Shown piece by piece: positions 10,422-28,610 of a DNA stretch of 64,000 nucleotides; the stretch's first letter is position 1, and each line of letters begins with the position of its first letter. Source of the DNA: Leucoraja ocellata (taxonomy: Eukaryota). The notes under the pieces are model-generated. The model was not told the origin of the DNA and did no database searches. It saw nothing but the letters and a program-made list of their open reading frames with translations. The position numbers were made by a program, and so were the translations under genes. The stretch lies in the NCBI GenBank assembly GCA_036785375.1, contig JAWMAR010000150.1:3534001-3598000 (forward strand), in the 5' to 3' direction.

Positions 10422-13286
10422 GATTGGCATCACCGAGGTACGTTGTTTAGTAGAGTGACAGCCGCCGGAAAGAAGCTGTTCCTCGACCTGCTGGTTCGGC
10501 AACGGAGAGACCTGTAGCGCCTCCCGGATGGTAGGAGGGTAAACAGTCCATGGTTGGGGTGAGAGCAGTCCTTGGCGATGCTGAGCACCCTCCGCAGACA
10601 GCGCTTGCTTTGGACAGACTCAATGGAGGGGAGCGTGGAACCGGTGATGCGTTGGACAATTTTCACCACCCTCTGCAGTGCCTTCCGGTCGGAGACAGAG
10701 CAGTTGCCATACCATACTGTGATGCAGTTGGTAAGGATGCTCTCGATGGTGCAGCGGTAGAAGTTCACCAGGATCTGAGGAGACAGATGGACCTTCTTCA
10801 GTCTCCTCAGGAAGAAGAGACGCTGATGAGCCTTCTTGATCAGAGTAGAGGTATTGTGGTCCAAGAGAGGTCATCGGAGATGTTGACTCCCAGGAACCTG
10901 AAGCTAGAAACACGTTCCACCTCCGTCCCGTTAATGTGGATGGGGGTGTGCGTGCCACCTCTGGACTTCCTGAAGTCTACAATGAGCTCCTTGGTCTTCT
11001 TGGAGTTAAGGGCCAGGTTGTTGTCAGCGCACCATGCTGCTAAGTGCTGGACCTCCTCCCTGTAGGCCAGCTCATCGTTGTTGCTGATGAGGCCAATCAC
11101 CGTTGTATCATCTGCATACTTGATGATGGTGTTAGTACCATGTACAGGTGTGCAGTCATAGGTGAAGAGGGAGTAGAGGAGGGGGCTCAGCACACAGCCC
11201 TGAGGAACGCCGGTGTTCAGGGTGAGGGTTGAAGAGGTGTGCTTGTCTAACCTCACAGACTGGGGTCTGTTGGTTAGAAAGTCCAGTATCTAGTTGCAGA
11301 GGGAGGGGTCGATGCCCAGGTTACCGAGTTTGGTGATCAGTTTTGATGGAATAATGGTGTTGAATGCTGAGCTGTAATCGATGAACAGCATTCTTACATA
11401 AGTGTCTCTGTTGTCAAGGTGGGAGAGGGCGGAGTGGTGCCGTTGAGATGGCATCCTCCGTACTCCTGTTCTTGCGGTAGGCAAACTGATAGGGATCCAG
11501 TGTGGGGGGTAGGCAGCTTTTGAGGTGTGCCAGGACCAGCCTCTCGAAGCACTTGGTGATGATGGGGGTAAGTGCAACTGGGCGGAAGTCGTTGAGGCTT
11601 GCCGCAGTGGAGTGTTTTGGCACTGGCACGATGGAGGTGGCTTTAAGGCAAGTGGGGACAACTGCTTGGGCAAGTGACAGGTTGAAGATGTCAGTCCAGA
11701 CGTCTGTCAGCTGCGCAGCACAGGCACTGAGCACGCGCCCGGGGATGCCGTCAGGGCCAGCAGCCTTACGTGCATTAGTCCTACTCAGTGCCACGTACAC
11801 GTCGTAGGGGGTGAGTGTGAGGGGTTGGTGATCGGCAGGTAGCACAGCCTTGATGGCTGTCTCTAGATTGTCCCTGTCGAAGCGGCCATAGAAGTGGTTA
11901 AGCTCCTCAAGGAAGGAGGCGTCGCTGGATGTGGGGGTGATGTTGGAGGGTCTGTAGTCCGTGATGGCCTGGATGCCTTGCCACATGCGTCGGGGGTCGG
12001 AGTTGTTGTTGAAGTGCTCCTCAATCCTGAGCTTATGGCAGTGCTTGGCCTTCCTGATGCCCCTCTTCAGGTTAGCCCTGGATGAACTGTAGGCTCGAGC
12101 ATCGCCTGACCTGAAAGCGGTGTCCCGTGCTTTCAGCAGTAGCCTGACCTCGCTGTTCATCCATGGCTTCTGATTCGGGTATATGGTCACCTGTTTGAGG
12201 GAGGTGACACTATTGATGGTGGAGTTTATAAAGTCCAGAACAGAGGATGTATAGGAATCAATGTCCGTGTGAGAGTCAAGGGTGGCCTGGGCTGCAAACG
12301 CCTTCCAGTCAGTGTTTCCAAAACACTGCTGAAGTGTGAAGTCCGCTTCCTCTGACCAGACTTTAACTGTCCTTACAGTTGGTTTAACCCGTCTGATGAG
12401 TGGGGAGTACTTAGGGAGCAGGAACAATGAGACGTGATCAGACTGGCCTAGGTGGGGGAGGGGGATGGCTTTGTAAGCTTCAGCCATGTTGGTGTAGACT
12501 TTGTCCAGTGTCTTGTCTACTCTAGTGGGGAAGGATACATGTTGGTGGAATTTGGGGAGTACAGTCTTCAGGTTGGAGTGATTGAAGTCACCCGCAACAA
12601 TGAAGGCTGCCTCGGGGTTGTGCGTCTGTTGTTTGCTAATGGCAGTATGCAGCTCTTTCATTGCAAGCTTGGCATTAGCATCAGGAGGGATGTAGGCTGC
12701 AGTCACAACAGTGGAGGTGAACTCTCTGGGCAGATAGAACGGTCTGCATCTAACCAAGAGGAATTCAAGGTTAGCTGAGCAGTGACTCTCGATGATGGTG
12801 GAGTCCGTGCACCATGCTTTGTTTACATAAATGCACAGACCCCCCCCTCTGGTCTTACCAGAGTCTGATGTCCTGTCCGCTCGGAGTAAATGACGCCCCG
12901 ATAGCTGGATGGCGCTGTCAGGAACGTCAGTGTTGAGCCAAGTTTCAGTGAAGATCAAGATGTTGCAGTCCTTGATCCGGTTGTGGGAGGTGATCCTTAG
13001 CCGGAGTTCATCCATTTTGTTTGCCAGTGAGCGCACGTTGGCGAGGAAAAGGCTAGGAATCGCTGCCCTGTGTGGGGCTAGCTCTAACCTGGCCTTTAAC
13101 CCACCTCTGCGTCCCCGGCGGTGTTTTCGTACCCGTCGCCGTCTGTTGGTGCTTCTGGTGGGCCGAGCTGGCTTGGTGCGCGCTGGTGTTCTGCCGCTCC
13201 GTTGCTCCGCGTCTGCGTTACTCCGCAGGCGGTCTTCAGCCCCGCGGCTCTGCTGATGGTCTCCAGCCCTGGGGCTTACCTGGCAT

Positions 13287-13950
13287 TCTCCAGCACCACG
13301 GGTCGGGTGGTGGTCTCCAGCTCCACGGGTCGGGTGGTGGTCTCCAGCTCCACGGGTCGGGTGGCGTTCTCCAGCTCCACGGGTCGGGTGGCGTTCTCCA
13401 GCTCCACGGGTCGGGTGGCGTTCTCCAGCTCCACGGGTCGGGTGGCGTTCTCCAGCTCCACGGGTCGGGTGGTGGTCTCCAGCTCCACGGGTCGGGTGGT
13501 GGTCTCCAGCTCCACGGGTCGGGTGGTGGTCTCCAGCTCCACGGGTCGGGTGGTGGTCTCCAGCTCCACGGGTCGGGTGGCGGTCTCCAGCTCCACGGGT
13601 CGGGTGGCGTTCTCCAGCTCCACGGGTCGGGTGGTGGTCTCCAGCTCCACGGGTCGGGTGGTGGTCTCCAGCTCCACGGGTCGGGTGGCGTTCTCCAGCT
13701 CCACGGGTCGGGTGGTGGTCTCCAGCTCCACGGGTCGGGTGGTGGTCTCCAGCTCCACGGGTCGGGTGGTGGTCTCCAGCTCCACGGGTCGGGTGGTGGT
13801 CTCCAGCTCCGCGGGTCGGGTGGTGGTCTCCAGCTCCACGGGTCGGGTGGTGGTCTCCAGCTCCGCGGGTCGGGTGGTGGTCTCCAGCTCCACGGGTCGG
13901 GTGGTGGTCTCCAGCTCCACGGGTCGGGTGGTGGTCTCCAGCTCCGCGGG
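13287..13950. repeat. 27-bp GC-rich minisatellite (about 24-25 copies, CTCCAGCTCCACGGGTCGGGTGGTGGT), followed by degenerate 18-bp repeats to about 14075
   Basis: Directly visible; two main unit variants (GGTGGTC and GGCGTTC). Confidence 0.97.
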
Positions 13951-14086
13951 ACGGTTGGGCTCCGGGGATCGGGTGAGTACCGGGAGTCGGGCCAGGACCG
14001 GGGGTCGGGTCAGGGCCGGGGATCCGGTGAGGGCCGGGCGTCGGGCGTGGGCCGGGCGTCGGGCGTGGGCCGGGGGTCCAGAACCA

Positions 14087-14940
14087 GAACTGCTGTTGCT
14101 GGTTTAAATCGAAGATACAAACAAAATGCTGGGGTAACAGGCAGCATCTCTGGAGAGAAGGAATGGATGAAGTTTTGGGTTGTGACCTTTCTTCAGACGA
14201 AGAAGTCTGAAATAGAGTCTCGATCCGAACGCCACTTATTTCTTCTCTCGCTGAGTTACTCCAGCATTTTATGTCGTATCCATCTATTATTTGCCAGGCT
14301 TGGTCCTGCACTTCCTCTCTTCCAGTTCGCTCTCCCCCACCACAATCAGTCTCAAAAAGGATCCAGTCCCAAAATGTCACATCCATCTTCTCTAGAGGTA
14401 CTGCCAGGCCCTCTGTGTTACTCCAGCACTTTGTGTGTTTTTTTGGAAACCAGCATCTGCAGTGCCTTGTGTCTACATTGTAATAGATGGGATTGTGCTA
14501 TGGCAAAGGAAGTGGTTGGTAGAGAGGGAAGAGTGCGGCAGGGGGTCATGGAGGGAATGAATGGGCCCTTCGGAACGCTGAAGAGAAAGGGAAGATATGT
14601 CAGGTCATATTCTGTTGCAGGTGGTAGAAATTCTGACGGATGAATCATTGAATGTGGAGGCTGCTGAGGTGAAGGCCGAGGTCGAAGTCAAGGTTTTCTT
14701 TCCTGGTTCTTGCTGTGAGAAGAGTGAGAAATGTGGTGAGAGGACAATTGGCAGCCTTGTCAACTGTGGTAGAGAAATAGCCATGATTAAGGAAAATGGA
14801 AGACAAAAGTGCCAGTGTGGAAAATCCCAACATCAGAGCAGAAATGGTGGCAGGGGTGAAACTAGGAGTATGGAATGGGGTCGTACCAGGAAAGTAGGAA
14901 GAGCTGTGGGACTCAATGGCTGAAAATTATTATTGGTAGC
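14087..14940 (-). mobile_element. Penelope-like fragments, resuming after the LTR element at about 19741-19890
   Basis: Terminal-repeat pieces and a degenerate RT C-terminal region (FLNHGYFSTTVDKA). Confidence 0.6.
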
Positions 14941-15103
14941 CGTAATATATATATAATGTAATTAGCATATGTCATGTCTTGTGCGAGGGACGCATGCGCT
15001 GGGGGAGACTCAAGGTGACGTCTTGCAACAAAGAAGCTTGTTAGTTTACTCCTGTATCTGAGAGTTCTTTTGAGTCAGTTCCAAGTACCCAAAATACACT
15101 ACA
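14941..15103 (+). repeat. 5' LTR (163 bp, CGTAAT...CTACA; terminal TG read as CG)
   Basis: Direct repeat of 18636-18650 plus 19589-19735. Confidence 0.92.
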
Positions 15104-15105
15104 AT

Positions 15106-15123
15106 TGGCGACGAGGAAGGGAT
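15106..15123 (+). promoter_or_regulatory. Primer-binding site, tRNA-Ser(GCT)-like
   Basis: TGGCGACGAGGAAGGGAT lies 2 nt after the LTR; 17/18 complementary to the recalled vertebrate tRNA-Ser(GCT) 3' end (ATCCCATCCTCGTCGCCA). Confidence 0.85.
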
Positions 15124-16725
15124 AGAGTTTGTGAACTCCCCCACCGGACTGTTTTGCAACACGTAGGATTGTTTAACAGTTTAAACTGTAGATACGGAGT
15201 TGTGTCGCAGTTGTTTGCGAGCTGGACAAGAGAGGCCTGCAGATCCCTCTATGCCGGGGACTGCATTTAAAGTATCCGCTGTACAAGTCGGCGAGTTTTG
15301 TCAGGCTATCTCTATGTTGTGTCTACGTGGCAAGATGTCGTCCTTCGGATTGTTACTGATTTTAGACTGAGTTTTCCTTTTGTCAAATTCCTCAAGCTGA
15401 ATAGTCTTTGTATAAGTTTTAGGTGAATTGTTACACCAAAACACACAACAACAGCACGAAGAGGATAAAAGAACAGAAAAAGAAAGGACTGTCAGAAAAT
15501 AAAGGTGGTGTTTGGAAACAAAGTGGAACGGCACCAAGCCAAAAGATTTGCCGCCAAACGGTTTTGGATTGGCGCCAAAGAAAAGCAAGGTTGGAACAGG
15601 AAGCAAGGAAAACAAGTGGGGCAGTAAGTGTCACTGAAGAAAGCAGCCAAAAGCTGGAAGCCTAACCAGCAGGACAGCGATGGTGTCAACTTACCTGGAA
15701 CATTTTCCAGGGCTGTATAGCCCACAGCCAGGCCCAGGAGCCGCCAACGACGTCGAGCGAGGGCCTAGTACCGGGTAGGCCACGGACAGGTCCAGTGAAG
15801 CCACCGACGAAACGGAGTCAGTCCGGCTGGGAGAAGAGTCAGCACAGTCGAGGGAGAAAGCCGGCCGTGTGAGAAGCGGACCGGCAGAGTGAAAAAAACT
15901 GGCCGCGAGAGAAGCGGACCGGTCGCGAGAGAAAGCCCGGTCGCAAGAGACGGCCGTGAGCAGAGAAAGCCTGGTCGGGAGCAGAGTCAGCCCGACCGTG
16001 AGCAGAAAAGAGGGTCCGGCCGCGCAAGAAAAGCGGATGGGCCGAGGTAGAAAGCCCGGACGTGAGAGGAAGTCCAGCCCCGAGCAAAGAGTGGGTCCGC
16101 ACGAGAGAAGCAGGACAGCACTCAAGCACTTCAGCCCGGTCGGGAGTAGAGTCAGCCCGGTCGTGAGGGCTGTGGAGACAGCGGGCAGGCGTCAGCAGAG
16201 CCGACTTGGCAGCGAGCCAGCGGCAGCAAAAGTAACGGTGAAGCACCGGAGGAGCCAGCAAAAGCAGCAAAAGTGGAGGTCTGGTGAGGCCAACAGCAAA
16301 AGTACCAGTGGGGACAGCTCGAGAGGTCGAGAAGGCACTGGAGTCCGTCCATAGGTCGACAAGCTGGACCGGTGAAATTCTTCAAAGTAAAAGCAGGACT
16401 GTAGAATGTAATGCATTGTTCACTATTCCTTCACAGTAAAAGCGGGACTGTTTGGATGTAATGCATTGGTCACTGTTATTAATAGTAAATCTGTGTACAT
16501 AGCAGGAATATGGTTAAAATGTTCTAAATGACTATTAACATGAAATGTTGGTTAACAGTATAAATCTATTATTATAAGAATTAGTAATAGTCAGTAGGCT
16601 GGATCACTTCTTAGTGTGTAGAAGGATTAAGTCTAGTGCAGAATACACAGTGAGAGAAAAGATAGGGCACCTGAATAGCAACAGGTAGCATGGCTTTTCA
16701 AATTGTAGGAAACGTGCCCCAGTTA

Positions 16726-17062
16726 TTTATTTGTTTATTTATTTATTTATTAGTTATTTATTTTGGACAGAATAAAAGAATAAAAAGCAAATGTGAAACA
16801 GCATACAAAAAACAAACACAAATATTTATAAAGTGTCATAAACAATATCCATAAATAAATGAAATCATATGTGTCCGAAAAGGAGCAGGAAGAAGCCAAA
16901 GCTTATTAATTCCCACCCCTTATTCAACTGCTTGTAATTATCTCATACAAATTTAGCAGCTATATGTACACCACATGTACATCACATGTACACCAGCCAC
17001 TATATGTACACCAAATTATTTACATTTGAACACTAATCAAATATTTACAAAGCCATACAAAA
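16726..17062 (-). mobile_element. 5'-truncated LINE 3' end inserted in the gag start (family uncertain)
   Basis: (TAAA)n-type tail on the minus strand; flanking AGTTA at 16721-16725 and 17063-17067. Confidence 0.7.
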
Positions 17063-17317
17063 AGTTAGATTCAGTAATTTTGAGAAATGGACCAAAGTCT
17101 TGGAGGCTTGTTTCATTTCCAATGATATTGCTGCAGAGGAGGAGAAGAAGAGAGCATGGTTCATATTAGGCTTAGGAAGAGAGGGTTATGAAACCTTACG
17201 TATGTTACTCCTGCCAGCAAAGCCCACAGATAAAATGTATGAGGCGTGTAAGGAGGTATTAATGGCTCATTTCTCGCCAAAACCTCCAAGGGCATCCATA
17301 GGGCAGAGTCTATCAAA

Positions 17318-17500
17318 GGACCAAGGTCAAGTGCAAAAGGACAAAGGTCAAATGCAAAAGGACAAAGGTCAAGTGTAAAAGGACAAAGGTCAAGTGCAAA
17401 AGGACACAGGTCAAGTGCAAATGGACACAAGTCAAGTGCAAATGGACACAAGTCAAGTGCAAAGGGACAAAGGGCAAATGCAAAGTGGCAGAAGTCAAAG
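17318..17500 (+). repeat. 21-bp tandem repeat (about 8 copies, GGACAAAGGTCAAGTGCAAAA-like) encoding QKDKGQV/M
   Basis: Directly visible; lies between the gag and IQ segments. Confidence 0.9.
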
Positions 17501-18650
17501 GCAAAGAGAAATTGCCATCCAAAGGGCAACCCTAGCTATTCAAGCTGCATTCAGGGGTATGAAGGTACGGAGAGAAATCCGGAACAAACAGAAGGCAGCA
17601 ACGGTAATACAAGCAGCATGTAGAAGGCACAGAATATACCGCCAATACAAGGCAATGAGATTGGCAGCTATAAGAGTACAAACCCATTATAGGGCACACC
17701 TTCAAATGGAAAGTGATCGCAAATCTTACATGAAGGTATGCAGAAGCGTTGTACTGCTTCAGGCAGCCTACCGTGGAATGCTTGTTCGAAGGCAACTGCG
17801 GGGCATGCATAAATCTGTCAAGGTCATACAGACTTATTATCAGATGTATAAACAGCGTCAGTATTTTAAGAAACTACGCTGGTCTGCCATTGCTGTACAG
17901 CAACGATACAGAGCATGCCAGATAAGAGATGTCCAAGTGAGACAGCATAAGAGTTTGAGGGAAGCAGTGGTGTGTATTCAGGCCTTATACCGCGGGATCA
18001 AAGCCAGAGTATTGGTAGAGAAAACCAAGGCAGCACGCTGTATTAAGTCATTCATAAGAATGTGCATTACAAGAAAGCATTTCTTGATGCAAAAGGCGGC
18101 TGTAGTCACTCTGCAAGCTGCATACCGTGGTTACCGATTAAGGGTACGGTACAGAGCTATGCGACAAGCAGTCTTTTCGATCCAGAGATGATACAAAGCA
18201 TGTAAAATAGGGCATTCCCAGTTTGTGCAATATCAGTCAATGAGGGATACCATTCAAACTGCCTACAAGAGTATGGTGGTTAAGCAAAAGAAATAAGGAA
18301 CAGAAACAGAGGAAATGTTAACTTTAGCAGAATTTCAAGAACTGGAAGAAATCTGCAAATTAGATTAGGATATTTAAAAAGGGAAGAGGCAGAGATACAG
18401 GTGATTAGAAAGATGAGTGGAATGAACCATTATAAGTGCTACGTTTTAGTACGATTATTACAGTTATGAGGATGTAATGTAAGATGACTGTAATAATATA
18501 ATTGTGCAACAGTGTGTTAATCAATTATATTTAACGTACTAGAAATGGTGTTATTCGCCTCCAAGCTAAAGGGGATGCAGTATAATGTATATAATGTAAA
18601 TGGTGTAACCTGCCTCCAAGTTAAAGGGGGAGCAGTGTAATGTATATAAT

Positions 18651-19583
18651 TATTACAGAGAGACACTGAAGATATTCATTTGGAGGATGAGCCATCTTGG
18701 GGAACGGCTGCTAACCAGCAGCCGTCCGTTTAACTCACTTTTTTTTTTGAGTTTTATTAAGTCCTGTCCTTTGTCTGATCGAGAATGGACTTTTTAATGT
18801 GGGGGGAAGGAGGTAATTTTACTTCTAGGTCCCTATCTGGTCGGCGAGGCAGCTTTTTCTCCGGGCTGCCCCATCGACCCGTCCTCGTGGCCTATCAGCG
18901 GGCGTGGAGCGTCGTTTCCTGGCGGAGTGGAGCGGGCGATGCCTTGCCTGGGTCGCCGCGCTGGAGCTCCAGTGAGCTGTGACCGCCGAGATCAACACCT
19001 CCGGGCTGCGGATCTGCGGAGTGGGCGGTGCCGACTCTAACATCGGGAGCCTGGGAGCTCCAACCCAGCGCAGCCTTGTCGGCTTCGGAAGCCGCGGTCC
19101 CCAGTCAGGAAGCGGCCGTTTCAGGTGGCCCAGCCACTGAGAGGACTCTCCCGACGCCGGGGCAAGATCACCCGGTGAGAACGGCCAGGAACATCGGGCT
19201 TCCGTAGAGGCAATAGCGGTGGCCTCAATTGGCCTGACTTTGGGTGAACTGGGGATGGGGACTGGACAATGTGCCATCCCTCACAGTGGTAACCATTGTG
19301 GGGGAATGATTTTTTTTTTTTTTTGTGTATTAGTAAACATGTTAGTCTGTGTCCAAGATGGCTGTCGGAAGGGAGAGTGGACACTGGCGCGCTTTAGCTG
19401 CCGCTGCTCTCTCTTCACATTGTGTTTTTGATTTTTTTGTCTTTGGATTGAATTCTGTTTTTAATTTGTGTTTTGGTGATGTCTTTATTATTTATTTTAT
19501 TCCGATTATATGCTTTATTATTCTTGTTGATCTCTGTAAGGTGTCCTTGAGATTTTTGAAAAATAAAATGTATTATTATTATA
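18651..19583 (+). mobile_element. Non-autonomous retroposon with an L2-like tail, inserted in the 3' LTR
   Basis: Ends TGTAAGGTGTCCTTGAG...AAATAAAATG(TAT)n; TSD ATAAT at 18646-18650 and 19584-19588; GC-rich body. Confidence 0.75.
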
Positions 19584-21759
19584 ATAATGTAATTAGCATA
19601 TATTATGTCTTGTGCGAGGGGACGTATGCGCTCGGGGAGACTCACGGTGGCGTCCTGCAATAAAGAAGCTTGTTAGTTTACTCCTGTATCTGAGAGTTCT
19701 TTTGAGTCAGTTCCAAGTACCCAAAATACACTACAGTAGCCCATCTATCACTTGAGCAAAACATGTCAGAGTATGGTCGAATTGCAGCAGGAATCATAGA
19801 CGGGAAGCAGTGAGTGAGGGTCTCAGAGAACTCCATTCAGGGAAAAAGAAAACTTCTTCAAAGTGGGCACACCTTGAAAAAGGTAGGAGGAGGTTCTGCA
19901 TTAGTTCTGCAATGGCAAATTCATTTCACTGCACCTTCGGTGCATGTGACGAATAAAATTGACTTGGACTTTTGACTTTGCAGTGGAACAGTTGACCAGA
20001 GAAGCAATTCTCCAGCCTAGCACTTGAGATGGAGAAGCCAACAATGGGAAATGGACTGTTATGGACCAAGCAATTGGGAGAGCAGGGTGGATACAACACG
20101 GCAGCAAAAGGAAAACAGATTTGAGTGCAGAAAGCAGTAGCAATAGTTTGGCAATTCAAATTTGGTAACATTGGCATACTAAAAAAAGTTTCTGATACCA
20201 GGAAATAAAGTTGTGAACTCAGATCTCAGCATCATTTCTCGTGGAACATGTTGTGCTTATTAGTAAACCATTCTTTACTTATAATTTCAGCTTTCTATAT
20301 TGATGCCAGTTAACTTTCGATTCTGTTAATTATTCACCGACTGCGTGCTGCCCTTAATTATTATTGTGTCACTTAAACAACGACCTTTTGGAATGTCATA
20401 TAAACTATATTACTAATAGGAATCTTGCCTACTGTATCCACTGGATCTCCTGAATTCAATAAGATTGCATCAAGAAAGGTTTTGAAATCGGTTTAGACTA
20501 AGTACATTGAGACTTCCCAGGAGTCAGTCGCTGTGGTGGATGTTCATATTATTTTTTTAAATTGGGTGTCTTGTTGCTCTTTATTGGTATGACTGTATGG
20601 CAAGTTGAATTTCACTGCACCGTAATTGGTACATGTGACAATAAACAAACCTTGAACCTTGTAACTATTGGTTACATATAGGAACAGCAGTTTCAGAATA
20701 AGGGGTAGTTCAATCTTGGACTGAGATGTGAAGAAATTTCACTCGGAGGATGGTGAATCTTTGGAATTCTCGGTCTCAGGGATATCATTAAATTCATTTA
20801 ATAGAGAGATTAAATTTCTGGATATTAAGGGAATCAAGGGGCTTGAGGATAGTACAGGGAAAAGGCACTAAGGTAGAAGTTCAGCTAAATGTAATTAGTC
20901 AACATTGATTTCGAAAGAAGTCTTTCTTGATGCAACGTTATTGAATTGTGGAGAGCTAGTGGAGAATGTAGGCAAGATTAACGCTAGCTTCTTAAGGAGT
21001 TTTGAAGGACCAAATGGCCGAACCCTACAACTATGTTGTATTTTCTTTCAGGCAAATTGCAAATGACTGAGTAATTTATTTGTCGATAAACATGGGTGTC
21101 CATTGTGCCACAAGATATGAGACTAAAATTATGGTGATAATTGTACACAGTTGTCCTCCAGTCATGGCCTTGTTCCGGAGATATTACCATGTGTTCAATG
21201 GGTGAAGTTGCTATATTTTTGTTTCTTGAACTCTCCAAATAAATGTTCTCAAACTCTCCAAATGAATTCCCATGTTCCATAATCTACACCTAAAATCTTC
21301 CAGTTAAAGAGAGCATTGCAGGAGTGATATAATGGAAACGGGGAAATCAAAAGGCTCATTAGCTTGGTGATTAAATGTGCCCTTTCTTTAAACAAACGCA
21401 ACGTGCCTAATCTCAGTTTACCTCTGCCCCAAAGAATTAGATGTGTTAGACATAATTAAAATACATAACTTAATTTCATTTTGGGAAAGAGGGAAGTGGA
21501 AATTCACTGTGTTTGTTCACCTTAAAAAAACAGATTACTTATGCAAGATAGTGAAGCCATCTTCTCACTGCCTGAGAAGAAACTGAGGATACGAGTCATA
21601 TCCCCTTTAAAACATTTATAACCATCAAGACTATGGAGAAAGATCAACAGCAACTGGCAAACAAATGATCATGAAAAAATAAGCCATTTTAGATTTTTTT
21701 TCTTATCTCTCATTTCCAAGTTTGCAAATTGGCACCATATTTTACATGCAAAATGATGA

Positions 21760-27102: not shown

Positions 27103-28610
27103 CAAGTCAAGTCAAGTTGAGAGAATTTGTCATGTGTCCCAGATAGGACAATGAAATTCTTGCATGCTGCAGCACAACAGAATATTGTAGGCATAAATAC
27201 AGAACAGATCAGTGTGTCTGTATACCATAGACCATATATATATACAACATAAATAAACAGCAATAGGCTGTTATAGTTCAGAGTGTGTTTGAAGTTGTGT
27301 TTAATAGTCTGATGGCTGTGGGGAAGTAGCTGTTCCTGAACCTGGATGTACCAGATTTCAGGCTCCTGTACCTTCTACCTGATGGCAGCGGAGAGATGAG
27401 TGCGTGGCCAGGATGGTGTGGGTCCTTGATGATGTTGGCAGCCTTTTTGAGGCAGCAACTGCGATAGATCCCCTCGATGGTGGGGAGGTCAGAGCCGGTG
27501 ATGGCATGGGCAGTGTTTACAACTTTTTGCAGCCTTTTCCACTCCTGGACGCTCAAGTTGCCGAACCAAGCTCCGAACCGGTCAGCATACTCTCCACTGT
27601 GCACCTGTAGAAGTTCGAAAGAGTCCTCCTCGACACACCGACTCTCCATAATCTTCTCAGGAAGTAGAGGTGCTGATGAGCTTTCTTTATAACTGCATCA
27701 GTGTGCTGGGACCAGGAGAGATCTTCGGAAATATGCACGCCCAGGAATTTGAAGTTCTTGACCCTTTCCACCATCGACCCGTTGATATAAACGGGATTGT
27801 GGGTCCCTATCCTCCCCCTTCCAAAGTCCACAATCAGTTCCTTGGTTTTGCTGGTGTTGAGAGCCAGGTTATTGTGCTGGCACCATTTGGTCAATAGGTC
27901 GATCTCTCTTCTATACTCTGACTCCTCCCCATCAGTGATATGTCCTACAATAGTGGTGCCTTTGGCGAACTTGATGATGGAGTTTGCACTATGTCCGGCT
28001 ACGCAATCGTGAGTGTAGAGTGAGTACAGCAGGGGGCTGAGCACGCAGCCTTGAGGTGCTCCCATGTTGATTGTTATCGAGGATGACACATTTCCACCAA
28101 TACAGACAGACTGTGGTCTGTGAATGAAGAAGTCGAGGATCCAATTGCAGAGGGATGCGCAGAGACCCAGATCTGAGAGCTTGGTAACCAGCTTGGAGGG
28201 GATGATGGTATTAAATGGCAAGCTGTAATCAATGAATAACAGCCTGACATATGGGTTTTTGTTGTCCAAGTGGTCCACATCCAAGTGGAGAGCCAGTGAG
28301 ATCGCATCCACTGTTGATCTGTTGTGGCGGTAAGCGAACTGCAATGGGTCCAGGTTCTTGTCGAGGTAGGAGTTGATATGCGCCATTATCAACCTCTCAA
28401 AGCACTGGTCGATAGTCATTGAGGCACGTCACCTTGCTCTTCTTATTATTGATGCCCTTTTAAAGCAGGTGGGAACTTCAGACCTCAGAAGCGAGAGGTT
28501 GAAAATGTCCGTAAAGACTCCAGCCAGTCGGTCCGCACAGGTTTTTAAACACGTCCGGGTATACCATCAGGTCCAGACGCTTTCCGAGGGCTCACCCCTT
28601 CTGACGTCGG
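27103..28610 (-). mobile_element. 5'-truncated Rex1/Babar LINE (RT fragment)
   Basis: ORFs 27553..28419 ([19 protein letters not shown]) and 27278..27649; (CTTGA)n tail. Confidence 0.92.

Follow-up and report, generated by a model that had tools for sequence, protein, structure and literature searches.

A pol-less Gypsy-derived LTR retrotransposon family in Leucoraja ocellata carries captured ASPM and TLK2 sequence in frame with a Gag capsid lobe

A 64,000-nt stretch of the Leucoraja ocellata genome (assembly GCA_036785375.1, contig JAWMAR010000150.1, positions 3,534,001 to 3,598,000 of the forward strand), here called the window, contains a long terminal repeat (LTR) element at 14941-19735. 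A preliminary description, made from the sequence alone, had presented it as a Gypsy-type element in which pol was replaced by an array of IQ motifs from ASPM, fused in frame to Gag. The element is bounded by target-site duplications (TSDs) of GTAGC at 14936-14940 and 19736-19740. Its parts lie on the plus strand unless stated otherwise. The 5' LTR (14941-15103) begins with CG in the window copy, with TG in most copies, and terminates with ACTACA. The primer-binding site (PBS; 15106-15123) is complementary to the 3' end of host tRNA-Ser(GCT). It is followed by a long non-coding leader (15124-16689), whose initial 300-400 nt share 79-87% identity with the corresponding region in a pol-coding Gypsy lineage of the same genome. 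The start codon and initial 12 codons of a Gag lobe (16690-16725) are separated from the remainder of this N-terminal capsid lobe (17063-17285) by a later 338-nt insertion with a simple-repeat tail (16726-17062, minus strand). The lobe resembles K02A2.6-like Gypsy Gag and runs to an HFxPKP linker, without a second lobe or a zinc knuckle. Tandem repeats of 21 nt, or 7 amino acids (aa), derived from the ASPM exon (17315-17505) precede the captured IQ array of the giant ASPM exon (17472-18291; 84% identical to host positions G000:C28:11699856-11700679). A remnant of captured TLK2 mRNA, consisting of the joined ends of three host exons, occupies 18291-18413. Two polypurine tracts (PPTs) lie within a 55-nt duplication at 18568-18635, and some copies have an LTR that is longer by this unit. 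The 3' LTR begins at 18636, directly after the PPT, and ends at 19735; a 933-nt insertion (18651-19583) splits it into two pieces, 18636-18650 and 19584-19735. All cis signals reported earlier, namely paired LTRs, GTAGC duplications, a PBS at 15106 and a PPT, were present, and the two LTRs differed at 8 of 151 columns.

A reading frame from position 17037 comprises Gag-like sequence, the 7-aa repeats and the IQ motifs. It is interrupted by two stops in the window copy, at 17376 within the repeats and at 18189 within the IQ array. The single frame agreed with the initial reading (Pfam IQ, E 6.7e-23; 21-nt repeats visible in the sequence), as did the spacing of the motif starts of 23-23-27-23-23-27-22-23 aa. 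The lesions, which had been called minor, were considerable: in addition to the two stops, 338 nt had been inserted behind Gag codon 12, about 598 nt had been deleted at 18291, with the loss of a further 160 nt of ASPM and most of the TLK2 part, and the 933-nt insert disrupts the 3' LTR. The larger insert resembles dispersed repeats of unrelated host introns. The smaller one had been taken for a LINE, an identity that was not established; among the fetched loci it matched only the window copy and its haplotype twin, to which it is confined. The window copy and locus L056 (C210:3944891-3953391) share the same insertion site, with flanks 99% identical and 726 of 750 positions identical in the IQ part. 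The 598-nt deletion is absent from L056, and gene conversion between copies is a possible source of this mismatch pattern. A coding frame upstream in the leader was rejected, as there was no Pfam match and indels occurred without regard to frame (195 of 596 in-frame).

The origin of the IQ part was traced to ASPM of the same genome. The best named protein matches were ASPM, and the host gene was located on C28; besides CH and C-terminal exons it has a giant IQ exon about 1940 codons long. The element is colinear with the giant exon at 84% DNA identity over 825 nt. Undeleted copies hold about 890 nt of this exon and a further 160 nt at 85% identity, a contribution of about 340 codons to the family frame. 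The 21-nt repeats were identical at 15-18 of 21 bases to a 21-nt stretch at the start of the captured ASPM part, so the 7-aa repeats are best explained as amplified ASPM sequence. Their number varies from 3 to 14 units per copy. A higher-order IQ repeat of 23/23/27 aa is a hallmark of ASPM. The accessible passages of PMC374243 do not mention this pattern. An ASPM paralogue or pseudogene was rejected as the source of the copies, since the one ASH-domain match in the genome belongs to the ASPM gene proper on C28, and the copies matched only the giant exon; paralogue features (ASH, CH, exon-intron structure, C-terminal region) were absent from them. Inside the host exon itself (G000:C28:11695119-11701030), four units of about 657 nt that are 91-93% alike form an array, which accounts for the length of the exon. 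Elsewhere on this contig, a 21-nt repeat array 73-79% like the element repeats, without other element parts, was located at G000:C28:11801050-11801720. A sushi-domain frame downstream of ASPM (G000:C28:11760117) resembles the CFH/F13B neighbours of the gene in mammals.

A second captured gene was found in the part that the window copy has lost. It corresponds to the coiled-coil region of Tousled-like kinase 2 (PDB 5o0y, E 2e-35) and is 79% identical to skate TLK2; the kinase domain was not among the captured sequence. Five consecutive host exons, spread over 7.7 kb in the gene, are joined without introns in the element, with 77-95% identity per exon. TLK2 was therefore captured from spliced mRNA, and capture at the DNA level was rejected. 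TLK1 was rejected as donor (72-78% compared with 77-95% for TLK2). The ASPM part lies inside one exon and is uninformative on splicing. A 50-nt TLK2 piece interrupts the ASPM part, and shared words of 4-5 nt, GACTT and TGTG, were seen by eye at two ASPM/TLK2 joints. Both features are expected from repeated template switches. The joints are identical across copies, as in secondary retroposition. The claim of captured ASPM IQ sequence was correct but incomplete, as TLK2 and the ASPM origin of the 7-aa repeats had been missed, the former because the window copy lacks most of it.

The Gag N-terminus gave 243 protein matches, and 22 of 24 that were scanned carried retrotransposon-type Pfam matches. 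Several were Gag-Pol polyproteins named K02A2.6-like or Gypsy, with 33-50% identity. The similarity terminates at the HFxPKP motif, at about residue 85. In a model of a related Gag, residues 1-81 form a confident four-helix domain that aligned with capsid lobes of copia, PEG10, MLV, RSV and Arc (Z 7.5-8.9, rmsd 2.4-3.3 Å; the better alignments had Z 8-8.9 and rmsd of about 3 Å over 72-80 residues). In the two-lobed dArc1 and PNMA2, the alignment was to the first lobe. According to this model, the Gag part of the element ends exactly at the boundary of the predicted capsid lobe. Pfam did not recognise the lobe directly (DUF7041, E 0.08). In Foldseek, capsids headed the ranking but none of the matches fell below E 0.001; a PDB sequence search with the Gag profile matched zinc knuckles and not the lobe, and the Atlas yielded no match. 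A second capsid lobe, a zinc knuckle and pol were absent from 32 internal regions. The lack of pol, already noticed in the window copy, was corroborated by tblastn of three pol-coding proteins against these regions, with matches at the Gag N-terminus only. An apparent pol match at residues 1536-1591 of one query protein (P0212) was dismissed, as a second Gag start lies there. The designation as Gag thus holds for the derivation of the sequence but covers only the first capsid lobe of about 85 aa. This weakens the earlier proposal of calmodulin-responsive capsids, as one lobe is unlikely to build a shell alone.

The family was searched in 3.44 Gb of genome sequence in which TLK1, TLK2 and several insertion sites were doubled, so that part of it represents both haplotypes. 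TLK2 occurs twice on one contig about 620 kb apart (G000:C9:11010401-11069745 and 11633066-11694113), and two contigs carry TLK1, which suggests that both haplotypes are included in the assembly. The joint between the repeats and ASPM was found at 152 places by pattern search (≤2 mismatches), with none in the reversed control, and so much more often than chance would allow. First-look candidates numbered 470 for the IQ DNA, 368 for the TLK2 part and 1029 for the LTR. Forty of the 470 IQ candidates were scored and were 95-97% identical. The detailed set comprised the 39 other scored copies that were fetched; these are the closest to the window, so one wave is over-represented. Both LTRs lay within the fetched stretch in 32 of 40 copies, with a median LTR-LTR difference of 3.9%. 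After seven haplotype twins had been dropped, both ends were readable at 25 of 33 sites, and 19 of these 25 had a 5-bp TSD with ≤1 mismatch when the better of two possible LTR starts was taken by the script. Sixteen of the duplications were perfect, and all were different. The pol-less body between different TSDs shows that the dispersed copies were integrated by an integrase after pol had been lost. Transposition after the capture, as first proposed, is borne out by these many copies with their own TSDs, and confinement of the IQ piece to a single copy is contradicted by them. A secondary insertion of the IQ piece into one copy was likewise rejected, because the 39 other fetched copies and three older ones had the same structure. 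In the ASPM part, three copies chosen for low Gag identity differed from each other by 7.2-7.4% and from the young set by 8.2%, with the same ASPM and TLK2 joints. They represent an older wave, and the family spread in at least two waves with a common cargo. Given the slow molecular clock of elasmobranchs, the waves probably date back tens of millions of years.

Altogether, this is a non-autonomous, Gypsy-derived LTR family in which sense-oriented, in-frame host sequence replaced everything past the first capsid lobe, and brief shared words are apparent by eye at two of the joints. Numerous transpositions followed, in two or more waves, and the copies have decayed. A longer LTR form, with a 55-nt unit that includes an extra PPT, was found in L055, L070, L087, L100, L101, L112, L114 and L119, as if plus-strand priming had shifted to the upstream PPT. 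Three copies considered as tandem elements sharing an LTR were reassigned to this form, as they had good TSDs. One contig (G000:C230:1128000-1329139) carries seven copies with 24-65 kb spacing, perhaps a segmental array, and L098 consists of an LTR directly followed by an inverted LTR start and PPT.

DNA runs of seven organism labels from seven studies contained 40-47% of the sampled words. The Leucoraja erinacea RefSeq protein XP_055489032.1, 'ASPM homolog isoform X1', consists of the Gag lobe, 7-aa repeats and IQ motifs, with 77% identity to the family over 274 columns and 92% in the Gag lobe. It is annotated as a host gene under a name without mention of an element origin and is in fact a family product. 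Other proteins named 'ASPM homolog' in skate annotations may likewise be element products. The family explains this false annotation, which is a trap for work on the evolution of ASPM IQ repeats. Two further frames were observed on the minus strand of the window, outside the element. About 25 tandem copies of a 27-nt unit lie ahead of, and in frame with, a non-LTR retrotransposon endonuclease-reverse transcriptase frame (11414-14497), and another reverse transcriptase-like open stretch of 291 aa lies at 27553-28428.

Pol-coding Gypsy elements are present in the same genome. The PBS pattern occurred at 14 places, and a tRNA-Ser(GCT) gene was present in two of three loci that were cut out. The 18-nt PBS was common to four of nine fetched 5' ends of pol-coding elements. 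Across LTR end and leader, the initial 300-480 bases that align were 79-87% identical between these four and the family, and in three of them the first ten LTR bases were identical. The single 3' end of this lineage with a visible PPT matched it at 21 of 23 positions. Judged from these shared signals, the pol-coding lineage with the same PBS, leader, PPT and LTR start is a candidate helper and not a proven parent. An autonomous parent with the same LTR was not found among the best 30 of 1029 LTR candidates, of which 12 were read in translation by eye; four look like solo LTRs. Very probably, the pieces were joined by template switches of reverse transcriptase on co-packaged mRNAs, and the family was mobilised in trans by this lineage.

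Transcription was examined with reads from three runs (one polyA and two single-cell) of two organism labels, aligned to one full-structure copy at 90% likeness. RNA covered 30 of 30 bins, and one strand was dominant in 26, 27 and 28 of the 28 inner bins of the three runs; given the usual library chemistry, this strand is the sense strand. The depth was mostly 2-50, obtained from 1-6% of each run, and host TLK2 reads may add to it in the 3' bins. Five runs with small word shares (X15-X17, X19-X20) do not enter this count, and another (X18) is probably DNA.

After insertion, the copies decayed neutrally, with a ratio of 1.07 (1.02-1.07) between singleton changes at 0-fold and 4-fold sites. In the ASPM part, 290 codons of 34 copies contained 34 stops at 21 codons, each present in ≤4 of 34 copies, and shared indels keep the frame. 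No shared break was observed, compared with 4-9 expected under neutrality when the decay rate was scaled to 5-8.6% neutral change (P(0) 0.0001-0.017). Shared frameshifts were confined to the final third of the TLK2 part. At TLK2 codon 91, 14 of 27 copies have a stop in common, and the frame ends 150-350 nt before the PPT. The dN/dS between host and family, net of decay and with the host branch included, was 0.44 (0.29-0.68) for ASPM and 0.21 (0.10-0.54) for the first two TLK2 exons; the ratios of host-versus-copy differences at 0-fold and 4-fold sites were 0.43 (p = 0.006) and 0.32 (p = 0.037). A host-free count between old and young copies gave 15 changes at 550 0-fold sites and 7 at 104 4-fold sites, a ratio of 0.4 (one-sided p = 0.049). 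Polarisation by the internal repeat units of the host exon gave a dN/dS of 0.40 (0.23-0.75), an estimate that may include host history because the copies were about equidistant from all four units. The aligned copies give firm evidence for a kept frame on the source lineages and moderate evidence for a constrained protein. The source elements were probably under selection to translate the chimeric frame. A multi-copy consensus without an open frame and with a dN/dS near 1, which the preliminary description had named as the contrary outcome, was not obtained: no break is shared in the ASPM part, and the dN/dS on the source lineages was below 1 (about 0.4, borderline).

Several observations weigh against the explanation as a whole, including the mechanism proposed below. 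Among 30 copies with a start codon, three reach an IQ motif and one the TLK2 part before a stop. The host-versus-copy dN/dS holds the host branch and, by a rough reckoning, does not by itself exclude a neutral element branch. The host-free test draws on three older copies and 22 changes, and the intervals of its net dN (0.010-0.032) and dS (0.022-0.086) overlap. IQ core residues were weakly protected (4/40 changed compared with 57/245, p = 0.06). The Gag lobe showed no constraint between old and young copies (dN 0.135, dS 0.160), and its shared variants gave p = 0.10. RNA depth was lowest over the IQ core, the reads were short and read-through from host genes may contribute. The candidate helper has a different LTR body, and its Gag lobe, about 33% identical, may be too far removed for co-assembly.

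The action of the chimeric protein is inferred. Tentatively, it may be a cis-acting packaging adaptor. The single capsid lobe would dock into the assembling shell of the helper, the very basic IQ array would stand in for the lost nucleocapsid by binding RNA of the element itself, and oligomerisation of the product would fall to the TLK2 coiled coil. The element RNA would thereby outcompete non-coding RNA for helper particles. The idea of a nucleocapsid substitute fits the charge of the array, with 55 K+R and 6 D+E in 223 aa. It is less likely that the open frame alone mattered. Long 3' untranslated regions trigger nonsense-mediated decay, and a frame that is open from the Gag start to near the PPT would spare the RNA from it, so that any in-frame filler would suffice. 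The strongly kept frame and the modest amino-acid constraint agree with this, as do the end of the frame 150-350 nt before the PPT, the tolerance of shared frameshifts only there and the change of repeat number by whole 21-nt units. However, three dN/dS estimates near 0.4 would not be expected of pure filler, and the Gag part ends at a domain boundary.

Two further explanations are rather improbable, to about the same degree. In one, the cargo is a neutral passenger that serves as a spacer between the cis signals, its in-frame joints being due to chance or to the survival of the first chimeras, with no later selection. Many young LTR retrocopies are likewise in-frame sense chimeras (14 of 17 in PMC5131818), the copies decay neutrally (ratio 1.02-1.07) and the host-free test is borderline; yet the captures are old (15% from the donors) and no shared break occurred in about 430 codons where 4-9 were expected, whereas shared frameshifts do occur in the distal TLK2 part. 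The other assumes steering in germ cells. The IQ motifs would bind calmodulin or spindle poles, the coiled coil would bind TLK1/2 on chromatin and the lobe would tie in helper particles, which would provide access to chromosomes at mitosis. Both donors are cell-division genes that contributed interaction regions kept in frame, IQ core positions changed less (4/40 versus 57/245) and the in-frame TLK2 part had a dN/dS of 0.21 (0.10-0.54, host branch included). But abundance of both mRNAs would be expected anyway wherever the element is active, the ASH and CH domains of ASPM were not captured, the difference at core positions had p = 0.06 and the stop at TLK2 codon 91 is common to 14 of 27 copies. 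There is a small chance that a vertebrate retrotransposon built a new working protein from a capsid lobe and parts of two host mitotic proteins, which in dividing germ cells would attach helper particles to calmodulin, to the spindle or to chromatin bound by TLK. If true, exon shuffling would have given rise to a gene that was selected by a transposon and spread across skates. Single-lobe factors derived from Ty1 restrict their parent element, and a dominant-negative lobe that restricts the helper, to the gain of the host or the family, would match the lone-lobe architecture, the presence of Drt2 among the fold matches (Z 7.5) and the transcription of the family, but is very improbable, as Drt2 is a C-terminal lobe and the lobe here is the first, the family is dispersed and decaying instead of one conserved locus, and blocking its own helper would limit the spread of the element.

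The family shares the Gag N-terminus, TG..CA LTRs, a 5-bp TSD, a tRNA primer site and a PPT with K02A2.6-like Ty3/Gypsy elements, but lacks the second capsid lobe, the zinc knuckle and the whole of pol. A lone capsid lobe is shared with Ty1 p22/p18 and Drt2, as far as can be judged from the model of the related Gag. Acutely transforming retroviruses carry gag-onc fusions. With these, and with the HERV-K capture of FAM8A1 (cited in PMC5131818), the family has in common a helper-dependent genome and intronless host sequence in frame with a truncated gag. Unlike gag-onc retroviruses, the skate element is without env, spreads in the germ line as a transposon and carries structural repeat and coiled-coil pieces, not a catalytic oncogene. 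The defective LTR element Bs1 of maize, present in 1-5 copies in Zea, also holds exonic pieces of several host genes with the same joints in all copies (PMC5131818). It is a plant element with one donor out of frame, whereas the skate family is in a vertebrate and its copies outnumber those of Bs1 by two orders of magnitude.

Template-switch capture is an established process, also where more than one gene is involved. Tan et al. 2016 (PMC5131818) describe LTR-mediated capture in fly, mosquito, zebrafish, chicken and mammals, with microsimilarity at the joints, chimeras of several genes and secondary retroposition. Literature searches that did not extend to Repbase, Dfam or subscription journals gave no account of the present family, nor of a captured-gene chimera as a large vertebrate family with a kept capsid-lobe fusion; no precedent for its scale, for the fusion to a capsid lobe or for the kept frame came up in them. 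As a natural series, with two waves, several species and the donors in the same genome, the family offers a means to ask whether domains captured from a host can take over viral tasks, RNA packaging among them. Close counterparts are the retrocopies of Tan et al. In these, partial mRNAs replace internal open reading frames between LTRs with microsimilarity at the joints, several parent genes contribute to one chimera in sense and in frame, retroposition is repeated and the retrocopies are co-transcribed from the LTR. They are young loci of few copies, whereas the skate family is old, occupies at least 152 places and extends over two waves and several species, to which it adds the capsid-lobe fusion and signs of a frame kept in the source elements. 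Known animal LTR captures of host mRNA are mostly young accidents of few copies; here the chimera is the standard body of a successful family, and the evidence points to a hybrid frame selected for the element's own benefit.

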